From contig OZ244048.1 of NCBI GenBank assembly GCA_965215265.1, positions 3,968,001 through 4,032,000 of the forward strand: 64,000 nt of DNA. Reading direction: 5' to 3'. Shown here piece after piece: positions 58,103-63,936 of the stretch (positions are counted from its first letter, which is position 1; each line of letters begins with the position of its first letter). The notes beneath the pieces were generated by a model. That model was not told where the DNA came from. It was given only the letters and a program-made list of their open reading frames with translations, and ran no database searches. The DNA comes from Candidatus Poribacteria bacterium. Its GTDB lineage: Bacteria; Poribacteria; WGA-4E; WGA-3G. The position numbers and the translations under genes are program-made.

Positions 58103-59209
58103 ATGCAAAACGAGAAACTTATCCGACCGGACATTGCTCACATGGCACCGTATACACCTATTGTGCCGTTTGAAATCCTCAGCGAACGCCTTGGCATACC
58201 ACCGCAGCACATCATTAAATTGGATGCCAACGAGAACCCATACGGCCCCTCGCCTCGTGTCTATCAAGCACTCGCGGACGAAGCATACTATCATATCTAC
58301 CCAGATCCTGAAAGCACCGCACTTCGCCACGCATTAAGCGAGTATATAGGCGTAGATACATCACACATCGTCGCAGCACACGGCGCGGATGAACTCATAG
58401 ATCTCATCATTCGTCTTTTTATTACGCCGACAGACATCGTCATCAACTGTCCGCCTACGTTCGGCATGTACCAGTTTGACACGGAGCTGAATGGCGGCAC
58501 CGTCCTTGACATCTCCCGAAACTCCGATTTTTCGTTGGATACTGCAAACGTCCAAGGAGCCATTGAACGGATCGACCGGGTCAAATTGCTGTTTATTACC
58601 AGTCCGAACAATCCGGATGGCGGTATTCTCCCTGACGCATGTCTCCGGAAACTCCTCGCGCTGCCCCTGATCGTCATCTTAGATGAAGCCTACATCGAAT
58701 TTGCCGGCTCAGCGAATCACACCAGCAGTCGCGCAGCTTGGGTTTTGGAGCATGAAAACCTCATTGTTCTCCGAACCTTTAGCAAATGGGCAGGACTCGC
58801 AGGATTGCGGATCGGATACGGGATTTTCCCACACTGGATACTTTCGCATCTCTTGAAGATTAAGCAACCCTACAATGTCAACGTCGCCGGAACAGCCGCC
58901 GCCTTGGCATCACTTGCTGATATAGAACTGTTGATGCAAAACGTCCAAAAAATTCAGACCGAGCGCGAGCACCTCTATAAATCCTTAGCCCAATTTGATT
59001 TTTTACAACCGTATCCGAGCCAAGCCAACTTCATTCTCTGTCGCGTTATCGGCAGCGATGCCGCCGAACTCAAGAACGCCTTAGAACGACAAGGCATACT
59101 CATCCGTTATTTCAGAAAACCGGGACTCACAGACTACGTCCGAATCAGTGTCGGAACGCCGGCGCAAACATCTACCCTTTTAAAGACACTCGCAAAAAAA
59201 ACTGTATAA
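58103..59209 (+). CDS. hisC: Histidinol-phosphate aminotransferase
   Basis: KLDANENPY, SPNNP, DEAY, RTFSKWAGLAGLRIG. Confidence 0.95.
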   Translation: MQNEKLIRPDIAHMAPYTPIVPFEILSERLGIPPQHIIKLDANENPYGPSPRVYQALADEAYYHIYPDPESTALRHALSEYIGVDTSHIVAAHGADELIDLIIRLFITPTDIVINCPPTFGMYQFDTELNGGTVLDISRNSDFSLDTANVQGAIERIDRVKLLFITSPNNPDGGILPDACLRKLLALPLIVILDEAYIEFAGSANHTSSRAAWVLEHENLIVLRTFSKWAGLAGLRIGYGIFPHWILSHLLKIKQPYNVNVAGTAAALASLADIELLMQNVQKIQTEREHLYKSLAQFDFLQPYPSQANFILCRVIGSDAAELKNALERQGILIRYFRKPGLTDYVRISVGTPAQTSTLLKTLAKKTV

Positions 59210-59433
59210 TAATTATTGAATTCGACAAAACAATCTGTATAATAATTATACATATAAACCACAATATGTATAAAAATTGACAAAAATTATACATATCGGC
59301 TTGCTAAAGGTAGTCTAATATGACAAAAAAGCCATAATTCACACGATGAGTCACTGTGTACAGAAAACACGTCCACACAGTTTTGTCATCCTTGCCGCGT
59401 CCGAGTATCAAGGGACGGTGGTTCTCCGTGATG

Positions 59434-59748
59434 TTACGTGTCAGTACCGTTGTCAGCTGTCTCCAGCTGCCGCACGAGTTCTGCACGCACCGCCGGAGAT
59501 AAATGAAGTCCGGCTAACCGCTCCTCGGGGCTGAGTCCTTTGACACGTTCATCGGGACTCAGGCGTGCTAACATATCGGCCCGTTCTGCTGCGGGTAGAC
59601 TCACTAACATATCGGTGCGTTCTTGAGGGCTCAAGCGGGCCAGCATGTCAGCACGCTCTTCCGATGTCAGCGCCGACAGCAGCTTCGGACCTAAAGTCGT
59701 CGCAACTTCGCGAAGACGACTCTGAAACAAATCTTGACGGCCTTCCAT
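59434..59748 (-). CDS. Predicted internally initiated small C-terminal protein (104 aa), copy A
   Basis: In-frame ATG at 59748, 8 nt after GGAGGAGG (59757-59764). Confidence 0.55.
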   Translation of the reverse strand: MEGRQDLFQSRLREVATTLGPKLLSALTSEERADMLARLSPQERTDMLVSLPAAERADMLARLSPDERVKGLSPEERLAGLHLSPAVRAELVRQLETADNGTDT

Positions 59749-60393
59749 TTCACAAACCTCCTCCGTGACTTCCGGCTGCAAATACAACGCGGAGTCAAAA
59801 TATAACGTATTCTCTTCCGTTATCACACGCCGCAGGAACGCACGAAACTGTTTCTGCGACGACGCAAACAGCAGCAACCAATAATTCGGCTCAACCAGTG
59901 CCACTTCATTGCAAATCAACAGATGCACCGGCACGCCATCCATCAACCGATAATGCCCTGCCTCCAATGGCTCCCACGGCGCCCCAAAAGGCGGACGGGA
60001 GAGCAGCACCCGCGGCTTCCGAGACGACACTATCGTGAGGGTTAACTCGGTTGCCGGCACCTGCTTATCTGCCAGATAACCACGCGCACGCATACAAATC
60101 CGGTGATACGCAGAGGCATTCAACGGGTCGTTTTGTCCTTTGAATTCAAACAGATTATGCGTGCGTAAGTAAGAGAGCAGCGGGTTGGCACGCACTCTCG
60201 CGCGGGCTGCGGCACTTTCGAGGAGAACGAGTGCATCTATACGCTGCGGCACCCGGTTGACTTCTATCTCTGTCTCTATAGAGGCACCCAGCCCAGAGAA
60301 TAGCAGGGCCAGGAACTCTTTGAAGAAAGGGTCCCAGAGTTTCCGTTTGCTTTGTGTTTCTTTAGATGTCTCTGGTGCCGTAGTTTGCCTCAT
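59434..60393 (-). CDS. Rpn-like PD-(D/E)XK protein with C-terminal helical repeats (copy A)
   Basis: WDPFFK..., RIDAL...NLFEFK nuclease-like motif; tail of LSPxER repeats. Confidence 0.75.
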   Translation of the reverse strand: MRQTTAPETSKETQSKRKLWDPFFKEFLALLFSGLGASIETEIEVNRVPQRIDALVLLESAAARARVRANPLLSYLRTHNLFEFKGQNDPLNASAYHRICMRARGYLADKQVPATELTLTIVSSRKPRVLLSRPPFGAPWEPLEAGHYRLMDGVPVHLLICNEVALVEPNYWLLLFASSQKQFRAFLRRVITEENTLYFDSALYLQPEVTEEVCEMEGRQDLFQSRLREVATTLGPKLLSALTSEERADMLARLSPQERTDMLVSLPAAERADMLARLSPDERVKGLSPEERLAGLHLSPAVRAELVRQLETADNGTDT

Positions 60394-60426
60394 CTATCTG
60401 CTTAGACGCTCCACTTCTCATAATAA

Positions 60427-60456
60427 AGTATAGCAGCCTCCCTATTATTTTGTCAA
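60427..60456 (-). promoter_or_regulatory. Promoter of copy A
   Basis: TTGACA-N18-TATACT. Confidence 0.65.
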
Positions 60457-60513
60457 GGCAGTCTCCAGATTTCGCTTCTCAAAGTGGCCTCGACGCTTCT
60501 CTCTATCCAAAAC

Positions 60514-60557
60514 AAAAAAAACCAGGGGCAGCCATGTGAGGGTGGCTGCCCCTGGTT
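60514..60557 (-). terminator. Intrinsic terminator (duplicated at 62086)
   Basis: AACCAGGGGCAGCCA/TGGCTGCCCCTGGTT stem with a U-tract on the minus strand. Confidence 0.85.
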
Positions 60558-60573
60558 TAGGTTAGGTTAAATA

Positions 60574-60758
60574 TCACTGAGGTGACTCTTGTGATTTGAG
60601 CGTCGCCCAGCGTTCGGTAAGTTTTCCGTCTGCACTCAGATGCCCTCTCAACCGCGTTGTCTGCAGCGTCTGCAGCCCCCCGGCGTTTCCAAGTATCGCC
60701 ACGGCGGCTGTTGAATCCAGCGTTGTTGAACTCAGATCCGGTTGCTCAACTGATGACG
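60574..60758 (-). pseudogene. Orphan 3' end of a secreted-protein gene
   Basis: Encodes ...LSADGKLTERWATLKSQ, resembling the GKLTTTWAKVK tail at 26747; no 5' part; followed by the terminator. Confidence 0.55.
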
Positions 60759-60812
60759 GTTTTATCATCCTTGCCGCGTTCGAGTATCAAGGGACGGTGG
60801 CTCTCCGTGATG

Positions 60813-61325
60813 TTACGTGTCAGTACCGTTGTCTGCTACCTCCAGCTGCCGCACGAGTTCTGCACGCACCGCCGGAGATAAATGAAGTCCGGCTAACCGC
60901 TCATCGGGAGTGAGTCCTTTGACGCGCTCATCGGGGCTGAGTCCTTCGACGCGCTCATCGGGGCTGAGTCCTTCGACGCGCTCATCGGGACTCAGGCGTG
61001 CCAACATATCGGCGCGTTCTGCCGCGGGTAGACTCGCCAACATATCGGCACGTTCTGCGGCGGGTAGACTCGCCAACATATCGGCACGTTCTGCGGCGGG
61101 TAAACTCGCCAACATATCGGCACGTTCTGCCGCAGATAGCCTTGCTAACATGTCCGCACGGGCTTCAGCGGGCAGCCGTGCGAGCAGATCCGCCCGGTCT
61201 TGAGGGCTCAAGCGGGCCAGCATGTCCGCCCGCTCCTCCGATGTCAGTGCTGACAGCAGCTTCGGACCTAAAGTCGTCGCAACTTCGCGAAGACGACTCT
61301 GAAACAAATCTTGACGGCCTTCCAT
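60813..61325 (-). CDS. Predicted internally initiated small C-terminal protein (170 aa), copy B
   Basis: In-frame ATG at 61325, 8 nt after GGAGGAGG (61334-61341). Confidence 0.55.
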   Translation of the reverse strand: MEGRQDLFQSRLREVATTLGPKLLSALTSEERADMLARLSPQDRADLLARLPAEARADMLARLSAAERADMLASLPAAERADMLASLPAAERADMLASLPAAERADMLARLSPDERVEGLSPDERVEGLSPDERVKGLTPDERLAGLHLSPAVRAELVRQLEVADNGTDT

Positions 61326-61970
61326 TTCACAAACCTCCTCCGTGACTTCCGGCTGCAAATACAACGCGGAGTCAAAATATAACGTATTCTCTTCTGTTAT
61401 CACACGCCGCAGGAACGCACGAAACTGTTTCTGCGCCGACGCAAACAGCAGCAACCAATAATTCGGTTCAACCAGTGCCACTTCATTGCAAACCAACAGA
61501 TGCACCGGCACGCCATCCATCAACCGATAATGCCCTGCCGCCAACGGCGCCCACGGCGCCCCAAAAGGCGGATGTGTCAGCAGCGCCCGCGGCTTCCGAG
61601 ACGACACTATCGTCAGGGTTAACTCGGTTGCAGGCACCTGCTTATCTGCCAGATAACCACGCGCACGCATACAAATCCGGTGATACGCCGATTCATTCAA
61701 CGGGTCGTTCTGCCCTTTGAACTCGAACAGATTATACGTGCGTAAGTAAGAGAGCAGCGGATTGGCACGCACTCTCGCCCGGGCTGCGGCGCTTTCGAGG
61801 AGAGCGAGTGCATCTATACGCTGCGGCAACCGGTTGACTTCTATCTCTGTCTGGATAGAGGCACCCAGCCCAGAGAACAGCAGGGCCAGGAACTCTTTGA
61901 AGAAAGGGTCCCAGAGTTTGCGTTTGCTTTGTGTTTCTTTAGATGTCTCCGGTGCCATAGTTTGCCTCAT
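60813..61970 (-). CDS. Rpn-like PD-(D/E)XK protein with expanded C-terminal repeats (copy B)
   Basis: Near-identical to copy A but 66 aa longer because of extra 12-aa (LPAAERADMLAS) and 9-aa (LSPDERVEG) units. Confidence 0.75.
   Translation of the reverse strand: MRQTMAPETSKETQSKRKLWDPFFKEFLALLFSGLGASIQTEIEVNRLPQRIDALALLESAAARARVRANPLLSYLRTYNLFEFKGQNDPLNESAYHRICMRARGYLADKQVPATELTLTIVSSRKPRALLTHPPFGAPWAPLAAGHYRLMDGVPVHLLVCNEVALVEPNYWLLLFASAQKQFRAFLRRVITEENTLYFDSALYLQPEVTEEVCEMEGRQDLFQSRLREVATTLGPKLLSALTSEERADMLARLSPQDRADLLARLPAEARADMLARLSAAERADMLASLPAAERADMLASLPAAERADMLASLPAAERADMLARLSPDERVEGLSPDERVEGLSPDERVKGLTPDERLAGLHLSPAVRAELVRQLEVADNGTDT
60895..61240 (-). repeat. Coding tandem repeats (27-bp and 36-bp units)
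   Basis: Plus-strand units CGCTCATCGGGGCTGAGTCCTTCGACG and GCCAACATATCGGCACGTTCTGCGGCGGGTAGACTC; boundaries approximate. Confidence 0.9.
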
Positions 61971-62003
61971 CTATCTGCTTAGACGCTTCACTTCTCATAA
62001 TAA

Positions 62004-62033
62004 AGTATAGCAGCTTCTCTGTTATTTTGTCAA
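62004..62033 (-). promoter_or_regulatory. Promoter of copy B
   Basis: TTGACA-N18-TATACT. Confidence 0.65.
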
Positions 62034-62085
62034 GGCAGTCTCCAGATGTCGCTTCTCAAGGCGGCCTCGGTGCTTCTCTGAAAGC

Positions 62086-62129
62086 AAAAAAAACCAGGGG
62101 CAGCCATGTGAGGGTGGCTGCCCCTGGTT
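62086..62129 (-). terminator. Intrinsic terminator of the LRR gene
   Basis: Same hairpin and U-tract as 60514-60557. Confidence 0.85.
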
Positions 62130-62184
62130 AGGTTAGTTTAGTTTAACTTAGATTTCACTGAGTTTATTCTTCCGAGTTAAGTTG

Positions 62185-63936
62185 TTAATCTGACAGCGGC
62201 GAGATATCCGACACTTGTGTATCACTAAGATCCAGCACTTTCAAGTTGGTTAGGTCTGACAGAGGTGTGATATCCTCTACTGGCGTACCCGAGAGAGACA
62301 GCTCTACCAAGCTGGTGAGGGTTGACAGCGCTGAGATATCCGACACTTCTGTATCACTGAGATCCAGCGTTTCCAAGTTGGTGGCGTGTTCAAGTCCAGT
62401 CAAAACGCTAATGTCTGAGCCACCTAAATCTAGGCTTGTCAAGTCTAGCATATGTGCCACGGTCACAGCCGTCCCAGCGGTGATGTCGAGTTCCTCCTTG
62501 ATTTTCGCAAGGAGCGTCTCATCCGGAATGGTCACCTCGCCGCCTGTTGTATCTACTGGCACCGTCAGCGTATTCGAGGCACGGCTCAGGTTGCCCGCTA
62601 TGTCCATTGTGGCATTCTCTGGCACCCTTATTTCCACATTTCCGTCAAAACCCGACGGCGGCGTGATAGTCGCTCTGTAGACTTTGAAGGCGGAACTATG
62701 TTTCACCAACCCCAGATCATCATTCCCCGGCGCAAAACCGGGATCCCGATGGTCTAAGCCGATTAACATCGGGGCTGAAACCTGCCAATCAGCCGTGGTG
62801 GTGCCTAGTGTCACCGCGGTGCCATCTGCCTGGAGCGTAATGTCCGTCGCCTCGAAGCCTCGCGTGGTATCTGCAATCACACCATCATAGCCATTTCCAA
62901 TCCCATAATTGTAGAATAGGAATTCCACATCAAAGGACTCTGTCTGAGTGTCACGTTCGGTAACAGGCGGATTGGGCTCTGCCGCTTCAAACGGTGCAAA
63001 ATTCACATAGGCGGTGCGGTAACCCGTCTGAACATCATGAGTCCCGTCCTTGATCAGCCCGGGAATCCTCACACTCGCCCGTTTAGCATCTACTTGATAG
63101 TTAAGGCCGGTATGAATAAAAGGGTCCGTAGTCGGCGTCTTATCGTTTGAACCCAGCCGGCCAACGTAAAAGTCCTTCTGAAGCTTTAGTGAGTAGATAT
63201 TATTCGCAGAAGTTTCCCACTTATGATCAGCGAGGGTGTCCGAGACGGGGTTCGCGACGTCCTCGTCATTATCTATGATGAAATTCTCGTCATCATCATC
63301 ATACGCCTCAGCCAGCCAATTTATATTAATGCCATCGCCGAAAACGTTATCACCGTCTTGCACCGTGTATGTGAAATATACGACTTTAAGATCGGTGTCC
63401 GCATCGGTCCTTGCTGAATCATAGACGGCATTTAGCTCAGTAACCTTTTCGGGGGAGCGGAATTTCTCACCGTCAAACACTAGACCCAGGGCCGGCAGCT
63501 CGGACGTTCCATCGTGCTGGACTTTGACATCTATATCAAATGTCAACTTAAGAACGATTTCATCTGTATTACCGAAAACTTTAATCTCTAGGCCCATGGC
63601 GGGGTTGGAGTACCCGGGAGCAGTCAGAATGATGTCCCCTCTCTGTCCTGCTACTAGATCCTTCCGAGCCGCGGTTCTTCTCGCGGGATCGGTATTATCC
63701 TCCCAATCTTGATATAAATATTGCCTGCTATACGAATAGAGCGAATTGCCTGTATGTGTACCTTCACTCTCTATCTCAACCTTCTCTAACGTCGGTTTCG
63801 CTGCCTGCACAGTAGCCATCGGTGCGGCTAACATCACAACCCCGGCTATCGAAATTACAGATGAGATAAATCTGACACTCAACACGCAAATAAAATACTT
63901 AACATATAGAAGGGGGGGGTGCATTCTTCTCTTCAT
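62185..63936 (-). CDS. Secreted protein with Ig-like domain(s) and C-terminal internalin-type leucine-rich repeats
   Basis: AAGGAG RBS, signal peptide, YRATITP...VPENATMDIAGN (Big-like), IPD cap, LxxLDLSDTxVSDISxL repeats; ends abruptly within the LRRs. Confidence 0.82.
   Translation of the reverse strand: MKRRMHPPLLYVKYFICVLSVRFISSVISIAGVVMLAAPMATVQAAKPTLEKVEIESEGTHTGNSLYSYSRQYLYQDWEDNTDPARRTAARKDLVAGQRGDIILTAPGYSNPAMGLEIKVFGNTDEIVLKLTFDIDVKVQHDGTSELPALGLVFDGEKFRSPEKVTELNAVYDSARTDADTDLKVVYFTYTVQDGDNVFGDGININWLAEAYDDDDENFIIDNDEDVANPVSDTLADHKWETSANNIYSLKLQKDFYVGRLGSNDKTPTTDPFIHTGLNYQVDAKRASVRIPGLIKDGTHDVQTGYRTAYVNFAPFEAAEPNPPVTERDTQTESFDVEFLFYNYGIGNGYDGVIADTTRGFEATDITLQADGTAVTLGTTTADWQVSAPMLIGLDHRDPGFAPGNDDLGLVKHSSAFKVYRATITPPSGFDGNVEIRVPENATMDIAGNLSRASNTLTVPVDTTGGEVTIPDETLLAKIKEELDITAGTAVTVAHMLDLTSLDLGGSDISVLTGLEHATNLETLDLSDTEVSDISALSTLTSLVELSLSGTPVEDITPLSDLTNLKVLDLSDTQVSDISPLSD

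Follow-up and report, generated by a model that had tools for sequence, protein, structure and literature searches.

We analysed a 64,000-nucleotide (nt) window from a Candidatus Poribacteria bacterium, a sponge symbiont (assembly GCA_965215265.1, contig OZ244048.1, positions 3,968,001 to 4,032,000); the window is part of a single 4.83-Mb contig. Two paralogous genes with a PD-(D/E)XK-like N-terminal domain and a repeat tail lie on its minus strand. Each of them probably yields two products, a full-length nuclease-like protein (L) and a short repeat-rich tail protein (S), because a conserved ribosome-binding site and a start codon are present inside the gene. The downstream gene with its signals is called unit 1 and the upstream gene with its signals unit 2. 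These are the features of the two units:

60813-61970, minus strand: long open reading frame (ORF) of the upstream gene (L), 385 amino acids (aa), PD-(D/E)XK-like N-terminal domain (residues 1-215) and repeat tail
59434-60393, minus strand: long ORF of the downstream gene (L), 319 aa, paralog of the upstream gene
61334-61341, minus strand: internal Shine-Dalgarno (SD) sequence GGAGGAGG of the upstream gene, 8 nt before the codon-216 ATG at 61325-61323
59757-59764, minus strand: internal SD sequence GGAGGAGG of the downstream gene, 8 nt before the codon-216 ATG at 59748-59746
60813-61325, minus strand: predicted short product (S) of the upstream gene, 170 aa, in frame with L from Met216; comparative evidence
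59434-59748, minus strand: predicted short product (S) of the downstream gene, 104 aa, from Met216
62004-62033, minus strand: promoter-like TTGACA-18-TATACT of the upstream gene, 11/12 matches, TG before the -10 element
60427-60456, minus strand: promoter-like TTGACA-18-TATACT of the downstream gene, 11/12 matches, TG before the -10 element
62092-62129, minus strand: hairpin terminator upstream of unit 2, 15-pair stem and T run; terminates the LRR gene 62185-63936
60519-60558, minus strand: hairpin terminator upstream of unit 1, hairpin and T run; 98% identical to the copy at 62081-62129

The 385-aa and 319-aa proteins are 78% identical overall, and all gaps fall within the C-terminal repeat tail. 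The duplicated DNA spans about 59377-60558 and 60756-62129, and the hairpin stems of both units have 15-16 pairs. An earlier note on this DNA had described two self-contained units, each with a terminator, a TTGACA-N18-TATACT promoter and an ORF with RID and FEFK motifs. This description was borne out, with both units on the minus strand, which the note had left unstated, and the motifs were found in both ORFs as D53 and E83/K85. A strong SD 8 nt before an in-frame Met216, giving products of 104 aa and 170 aa, had also been claimed and was confirmed in both genes.

Codons 210-216 (T-E-E-V-C-E-M) read GGAGGAGG TTTGTGAA ATG in both window genes. The 16S rRNA of this genome has the 3′ end CCUCCU, and SD-like 4-mers are most frequent 10-13 nt before ORF starts. 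The duplex of the anti-SD with the internal site has an energy of -13.3 kcal/mol in both window genes; at the annotated starts it amounts to -1.3 kcal/mol (upstream gene) and -6.9 kcal/mol (downstream gene). Anti-SD pairing of -10 kcal/mol or better was observed for 2% of sampled internal ATGs of the genome. GGAGG stands 5-10 nt before an internal in-frame ATG in 113 of 20,121 cases (0.56%), taken from 2,627 long ORFs. The internal SD-ATG pair exceeds chance occurrence.

Conservation of the internal start

With phmmer, 26 full-length paralogs in four subfamilies were identified among all ORFs of the genome. Subfamily A has 17 copies, window genes included, and the other three have 9 copies that are 40-53% identical to A. 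At the aligned codon, GGAG(G/A)-N8-9-ATG is present in 31 of 31 copies and fragments, across the four subfamilies. Homologue DNA came from 26 species-representative genome loci and 57 metagenome loci, the latter collected with an 11-sequence alignment, and from the organism's own genome; 85 junction-spanning ORFs were aligned to the hidden Markov model of the family. Reduction to less than 90% identity left 61 representatives, which carry ATG (58) or GTG (1) at the aligned codon. In homologue L080, ATG is replaced by GTG, itself also a start codon. At 4-11 nt before the start, GGAGG was found in 50 of the 61, GGAG in 7, GAGG in 1 and none of these in 3.

A stricter set of less than 70% identity comprised 27 representatives, and 26 after L064 (Lachnospiraceae, tblastn E 1e-5, without the motif) was dropped. 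Two sequences, in which the ATG is shifted by 1-3 codons, were re-registered. Synonymous sites are expected to be largely randomised below 70% protein identity. Reference codon 212 (Glu, four codons before Met) is GAG in 26 of 26, with a GAG share of 0.39 elsewhere in the same genes, and codon 211 has G in the third position in 25 of 26 (Lys 16, Glu 5, Met 2, Leu 2); the 26 sequences share ancestry, so these counts are not independent trials. Where codon 211 encodes Lys, it is AAG in 16 of 16 cases, against a background of 0.37. Control columns of the same 26 sequences show mixed usage, both for Lys (K25: 12 AAA, 12 AAG; K85: 13 AAA, 11 AAG) and for Glu (E83: 16 GAG, 8 GAA; E163: 8 GAG, 17 GAA). 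Neighbouring synonymous sites vary as well, with ACA, ACG, ACC and ACT at Thr210 and GTG, GTT, GTC and GTA at Val213. In a scan of the first 260 reference codons, GGAG was found at codon 211 in 25 of 26 sequences and at every other position in at most 8 of 26. ATG is present at codon 216 in 24 of 26, the next-best column reaching 18, and in 26 of 26 once the two sequences were re-registered.

The nucleotide-level conservation of SD and Met, a check named in the earlier note, was thus run, and both are kept in all 31 copies and fragments of the genome and across the 26 lineages. The internal start at the boundary between the nuclease-like domain and the tail is present in the window genes, in the other copies and in the homologue lineages. 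It is strongly supported by this comparison, and we consider it highly probable that the start is functional.

Repeat tails and tail-only genes

Two tandem repeat arrays were found in the tail of the upstream gene:

61000-61160, strand not assigned: 36-nt (12-aa, ERADMLASLPAA-like) tandem repeat array, 4.5 copies
60895-60992, strand not assigned: 27-nt (9-aa, LSPDERVEG-like) tandem repeat array, 3.6 copies

All 17 tails of subfamily A are unique, with 16 distinct lengths of 92-238 aa and 2-12 ERADML-like units. The N-terminal domains of the same subfamily are 83-99.5% identical (median 91%). Throughout the family the tail has 69-238 residues. Homologue tails consist of a first helix (MAGKQ..Y.K.LE.IA.D.G.DLL), a variable count of 9-residue PEERLRGL-like units and a last helix.

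The window tails match Pfam MgtE_N above the cut-off (E 4.9e-22 and 6.4e-6), and a PDB sequence search with the window proteins gave tail matches to MgtE/FliG and nothing else. No DUF4351 match to the window tails was found in Pfam. A model of the 104-aa S, built from an 18-sequence alignment, is all-helical with seven helices (pLDDT 76). Its best Foldseek rows are the cytoplasmic domains of FliG and MgtE (E 0.02-0.9, best 0.023), and there was no match in the PDB at E <= 0.001. The likeness to the MgtE N domain and FliG (PF03448, PF14841) therefore consists of the Pfam match and these weak structural rows, whereas the window family has no CBS or membrane domain and no flagellar context, and its repeat number varies between paralogs. 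The MgtE_N match probably reflects a generic acidic helical-hairpin repeat.

Besides the full-length genes, five tail-only ORFs are present in this genome. They match the family from about residue 166-200 on, and all five lie directly downstream of full-length genes. What appears in the alignment as an upstream 'extension' of these ORFs is the end of the preceding gene read out of frame, and we therefore take the ORFs as duplicated tail modules with SD and ATG. A tail-only ORF right after a full-length gene, with the junction kept, was also found in six metagenome contexts (L078, L090, L092, L096, L099 and L120; L098 is near-identical to L096). In L092, the conserved ATG, with GAGGAGG before it, is the sole in-frame start codon, and in L099 the other start candidates all lie inside the SD. 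Further in-frame starts exist upstream in L078, L090, L096 and L120. Orphan ORFs of 79-121 codons, covering the junction and the start of the tail, are the only family match in the Poribacteria genomes G069, G115, G100, G085, G151, G009 and G130. At the threshold used, these would be short-protein genes that lack a full-length partner.

The N-terminal domain

Residues 1-215 gave no Pfam or NCBIfam match at E <= 1 and no PADLOC match. Among 72 relatives compared with Pfam, no nuclease-family match was found for the N-terminal domain, and none to PF04754 or PF12784; a NCBIfam search with 23 distant relatives gave nothing for this domain. An AlphaFold (AF2) model from an 8-sequence alignment (pLDDT 77.5, pTM 0.76) shows an alpha/beta core over residues 17-165, followed by helices. 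An alignment-based structure search was run over 48,161 chains; its rows that span residues 17-175 are PD-(D/E)XK nucleases with Z 4.7-6.1:

AF1548 (1y88): Z 6.1, root-mean-square deviation (rmsd) 7.2, 146 aligned
NucS (2vld): Z 5.8, rmsd 3.6, 105 aligned
Can2 (8bao): Z 5.5, rmsd 3.6, 109 aligned
McrC (6hz4): Z 5.1, rmsd 4.3, 120 aligned
LlaBIII (4xqk): Z 5.1
Bax1 (6p4o): Z 5.0
Card1 (6wxw), BbvCI (6maf), VC1899 (1xmx) and R.BspD6I (2p14): Z 4.9 each
EcoT38I (7e8r): Z 4.7

These rows alternate with helical-repeat proteins that match residues 164-250. D53, E83 and K85 are invariant in 8 sequences. A wider set of 34 sequences (mean column identity 25%) shows no exception at K85, and at least 90% of its members retain D53 and E83. 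The pattern of D53 and E83-x-K85 fits the active site of a PD-(D/E)XK nuclease. The PD-(D/E)XK-like domain that the earlier note had assigned is thus moderately supported: the conserved residues stand, and the fold matches reach just Z 5-6. The PD-(D/E)XK fold appears likely but is not proven, since the Z values lie below the safe level of the tool.

Relation to the Rpn family

In 2023, intragenic antitoxins were reported for a single family, Rpn (YhgA-like, PF04754/TIGR01784/COG5464), whose toxin-antitoxin defence genes in E. coli encode the pair RpnL/RpnS (Zhong et al. 2023, PMC10400941). RpnS (RpnAS) is described there as a three-helix bundle of ~5 kDa, and the repeats begin 8-20 residues after the initiating Met of RpnS. 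The paper also reports rpnSs genes (ypaA downstream of rpnE) and stand-alone DUF4351 genes.

The genome also contains true Rpn genes. A genome-wide search with TIGR01784 gave 29 matches, which belong to a separate family of 24 genes with 323-408 codons. Three members tested match Pfam Transposase_31 (PF04754) with E about 1e-26, and Poribacteria relatives of this family carry the NCBI name 'Rpn family recombination-promoting nuclease/putative transposase'. By pattern count, the number of four-residue repeats (QGIE, RGIE, EGRE) ranges from 0 to 10 among the 24 true Rpn genes, and all proteins differ. True Rpn loci are listed as L065-L076, for example G000:C1:4188017-4189174, 3264650-3265750 and 1189547-1190773. 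Both families together account for about 50 nuclease-type genes in this 4.8-Mb genome.

Eight of the 24 true Rpn genes were inspected, and all eight carry GGAGG or GAGGAGG 7-8 nt before an ATG. The junction of these eight reads M-E-V-x-x-M-A-E or E-E-K-I-M-A and lies 10-15 residues before the four-residue repeats. Since the true Rpn junctions show GGAGG-ATG too, both families of this organism carry the signature known from the experimentally proven type of internal start.

The window family shares several further properties with Rpn. A probable PD-(D/E)XK-type N-terminal domain is followed by a variable tail, and an in-frame internal SD and ATG stand at the domain boundary, with GGAGG-N8-ATG in both families of the genome. 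Tails differ in repeat number, and extra tail-only genes lie directly downstream of full-length genes. Copy number ranges from 0 to dozens among close relatives, and tandem duplications occur without inverted repeats. DUF4351, under which name Pfam lists stand-alone RpnS, forms the C-terminus of some distant relatives of the window N-terminal domain; in the Pfam scan of 72, P0030 and P0112 scored above the cut-off for it and a few others scored below. In relative P0139, the tail matches the C-terminal part of TIGR01784. The 30 nearest clusters in the ESM Atlas have no common Pfam family; the nearest named ones are PF04754 (16% of members) and DUF4351 (25%), with a score of 0.91 each, and serve as leads only.

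On the other hand, neither sequence nor profile comparison revealed any similarity of the window N-terminal domain to Rpn. The motif of this domain is D...E-x-K, whereas the Rpn copies of the genome have E-H-Q, and the repeats of the window family have 9-12 residues instead of 4. The window tail of 69-238 residues is FliG/MgtE_N-like, in contrast to the roughly 5-kDa three-helix bundle described for RpnS. Kinship with Rpn, which the earlier note had put forward, was not borne out: there was no Pfam, NCBIfam or PADLOC match, no TIGR01784 match, and two profile-profile comparisons were null. No test run placed the window genes in Rpn, and we therefore treat them as a separate PD-(D/E)XK-like family that would work like Rpn, not as members of it. 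The other part of that claim, a logic of one gene and two proteins, is supported by the nucleotide-level conservation of SD and Met, by the tail-only genes that begin at this ATG and by the variable repeat number.

In the library searched, no paper links Poribacteria with recombination-promoting nucleases, and from 2023 on the terms RpnS, iTIS and 'intragenic antitoxin' are used there by the Rpn paper and its commentary only. The design was already known (Rpn, 2023), and the window family appears to be uncharacterised.

Copies in this and other genomes

Of the 32 genome sites with the terminator hairpin, 26 are no more than 600 nt away from a family ORF, and 20 of the 24 sites of the promoter motif lie near family ORFs. 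Because hairpin and promoter sites cluster near family ORFs, the copied unit is a cassette of terminator, promoter and gene. The flanks vary. Many copies come after the near-identical 3′ end of a gene for an LRR protein, and other copies come after the 3′ end of another large gene, which is the source of a remnant between the two window units:

60574-60768, minus strand: gene remnant between the units, 64 codons, C-terminal (3′) end of a larger gene of another type

Full versions of this gene upstream of other copies read ...YYYRIEDVS...LQTTRLKGHLSADGKLTERWATLK. The 64-codon sequence is found before or after many other family copies. Many copies are followed by this remnant and the hairpin, which often places a unit between direct repeats of the remnant. 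It seems that the cassette moves along with the ends of LRR-type genes or inserts after them. The only inverted repeat found at the duplicated window units is the terminator hairpin; there are no terminal inverted repeats. Like insertion sequences and 'putative transposase' PD-(D/E)XK genes, the family has many near-identical copies, a patchy distribution and self-contained expression signals. In contrast to insertion sequences, it lacks terminal inverted repeats in the window, and the unit ends vary among copies; for these two reasons a transposon or insertion sequence was ruled out.

In a genome of the same genus, no family match was found. A full-length homologue is present in 3 of 40 related genomes, and 25 of 150 other Poribacteria genomes sampled gave a match at E <= 1e-10, mostly one or two each. 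A second, independent expansion with at least 18 matches was observed in G144, a 9.1-Mb genome of the same order and a different family. A profile search of 1.84 billion representatives gave 1,359 clusters at E <= 0.001, 382 at 1e-10 and 49 at 1e-30. A word-index protein search with residues 1-215 returned 10 near-identical proteins without names. The homologues L059, L060 and L061 from metagenome-assembled genomes are broken by frameshifts or stops, and they are pseudogenes or assembly errors.

Proposed mechanism and alternative explanations

The proposed mechanism builds on what the comparison has shown in the sequences, namely two ORFs with their signals, a conserved internal start, tail-only genes, repeat variation and a D...ExK motif. 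L would be made from the weak annotated start and would consist of a PD-(D/E)XK-type nuclease domain and a helical tail with a variable number of 9-12-residue repeats. S, presumably translated in the cell from the strong internal SD and the ATG of codon 216, would be identical to the tail of L. An excess of S would result from its ribosome-binding site, which is much the stronger one in the two window copies. By analogy with Rpn, L would be a toxic DNA endonuclease, and S would bind the identical tail of L and hold the nuclease inactive. The repeat number would determine which S fits which L. The family would spread by tandem and dispersed duplication of the terminator-promoter-gene cassette and not by transposition. 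Taken as a whole, with one gene giving two proteins, S inhibiting L, the repeat number setting the pairing and the cassette being duplicated, this is the reading that we favour by a narrow margin of belief. For the inhibition of L by S taken separately, the Rpn analogy leaves the chances about even. The same analogy tentatively suggests that the system might serve to defend the cell against phages or foreign DNA of other kinds.

A complex of L (319 aa) and S (104 aa, 18-row alignment) was also predicted. It scored 0.41, with 0.00 for the best of 3 controls, and was rated 'weak support'. Of solved complexes, 58 of 80 attained this mark, as did 2 of 110 mismatched pairs; just 7 of those 80 and both mismatches did so with a score of 0.60 or lower. 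Agreement between runs covers at least 67% of contacts, with a partner pLDDT of at least 69; no interface was given. The prediction was not used as evidence.

Several observations weigh against the mechanism as proposed. The fold evidence is weak: the N-terminal model gave nothing in the PDB by Foldseek at E <= 0.001, and the best fold match, Z 6.1, is under the Z 8 that the search tool deems possibly common. No match to TIGR01784 was found at window-family genes in the genome-wide search. Alignment of the window family with the true Rpn genes of the genome by hhalign gave probabilities of 0.2% and 0.1%; very remote homology is compatible with this result because the Rpn profile is shallow (Neff 2.5). 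In subfamily B of this genome, the internal SD (-6.4) is weaker than the annotated SD (-12.0). The tail resembles the helical repeats of FliG/MgtE_N and not the three-helix RpnS, and the mode of action of S could therefore differ from that of RpnS. No defence neighbours were identified around the locus, where the neighbourhood is known as an ORF list only. A phage collection gave no match, and a plasmid collection gave low-complexity tail matches in 8 plasmids and no relatives. The locus is contained in 4 sequencing runs on record, all from one study and as contigs, and none of them is recorded as RNA. Finally, at least 90% of a diverse set of 34 sequences keep the residues Glu212 and Met216 themselves, and part of the internal-start signal could therefore be due to protein constraint.

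One alternative is that the genes form a selfish cassette of a recombination-promoting nuclease. The 26 copies would then result from self-propagation by duplication, gene conversion and repeat expansion and not from a use in host defence, and S would merely limit self-damage. The 26 full-length copies found here, compared with none in the genome of the same genus, and the independent expansion in G144 speak for it. The cassettes also come with a promoter and a terminator each, repeated fragments of adjacent genes lie at their flanks, and remnant promoters and gene fragments are scattered through the genome. RpnL as a possible driver of duplications and repeat changes has been raised in PMC10400941. 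The absence of inverted terminal repeats at the window units, the variable unit ends and the fact that no target-site duplications were seen argue against such a cassette, and we regard it as unlikely to be the explanation. It overlaps with the two-protein mechanism and does not exclude it, because both L and S would still be needed.

A second possibility is that each gene makes a single protein, and that GGAGG and Met are kept for an E-V-x-x-M helix motif, for mRNA structure or for translational pausing. The residue conservation of E212 and M216 noted above would agree with this, and at least one GGAGG(5-10)ATG is present by chance in 111 of the 2,627 long ORFs of the genome. However, the codon choice is specific to the site, with AAG in 16/16 and GAG in 26/26 at codons 211 and 212 compared with roughly even usage at K25, K85, E83 and E163. 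The third-position G is retained across different residues (K, E, M and L, with T in the reference). Tail-only genes start at exactly this ATG, which in one of them is the sole possible start, and the true Rpn genes of the genome show the same signature at the equivalent position. A single protein per gene is, in our view, distinctly improbable. That the proteins are not nucleases, but regulatory or scaffold proteins with the FliG/MgtE_N-like tail as the functional part, would agree with the Pfam MgtE_N match above the cut-off, the FliG and MgtE rows as the best for the tail in Foldseek and the just moderate fold match of the N-terminal domain, but it is very improbable given that there is no transporter or flagellar domain, that a family of 1,359 clusters conserves the D...ExK triad and that the tail is the least conserved and most length-variable part.

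At sequence level, a large family whose N-terminal domain is matched by no model of Pfam, NCBIfam or PADLOC shows the same architecture as Rpn. The codon-level signature of the internal ribosome-binding site can be read from DNA alone, and the internal-start design, if true, is recognisable by this SD signature. If the mechanism is confirmed, genes within genes would be a recurrent design for nuclease toxins, and annotators would gain a rule to find hidden short products. The presence of dozens of such genes with differing tails in some symbiont genomes would find an explanation as well. With near-identical nuclease domains and tails of 104 and 170 residues, the two copies in the window offer a natural test pair. 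A more far-reaching generalisation would see a second, sequence-unrelated PD-(D/E)XK family with the gene-within-gene design of Rpn, 26 + 24 mutually orthogonal self-inhibited nucleases, no two tails alike, with the repeat number as the pairing address, and a design that is general for PD-(D/E)XK toxins. We regard this generalisation as doubtful.

Further features of the locus

A gene for an LRR protein flanks the locus on one side and a histidinol-phosphate aminotransferase-like ORF on the other. A scan of 59200-62300 found 11 promoter-like sites, compared with 1.7 +/- 1.2 in shuffled sequences. Two weak sites were found inside the genes:

61376-61403, minus strand: weak internal promoter-like site of the upstream gene, GTGATA-16-TATATT, 9/12, ~50 nt before the internal ATG
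59799-59826, minus strand: weak internal promoter-like site of the downstream gene, 9/12, counterpart of the site in the upstream copy

The AT-rich stretch 59193-59300, between the aminotransferase-like ORF and unit 1, contains CTGTATAATAATTAT-like words in repeated form, and several promoter-like sites overlap there on both strands. The LRR-repeat gene (62185-63936, minus strand), with 66-nt repeats at 62191-62382, finishes just upstream of unit 2. Runs of 5-nt units (TAAAC/TAACC, minus strand) were observed at 62130-62160 and at 60559-60575, where they lie between the hairpin and the stop of the gene before it. The number of these units in the gap between stop and hairpin varies across the 17 copies of subfamily A.

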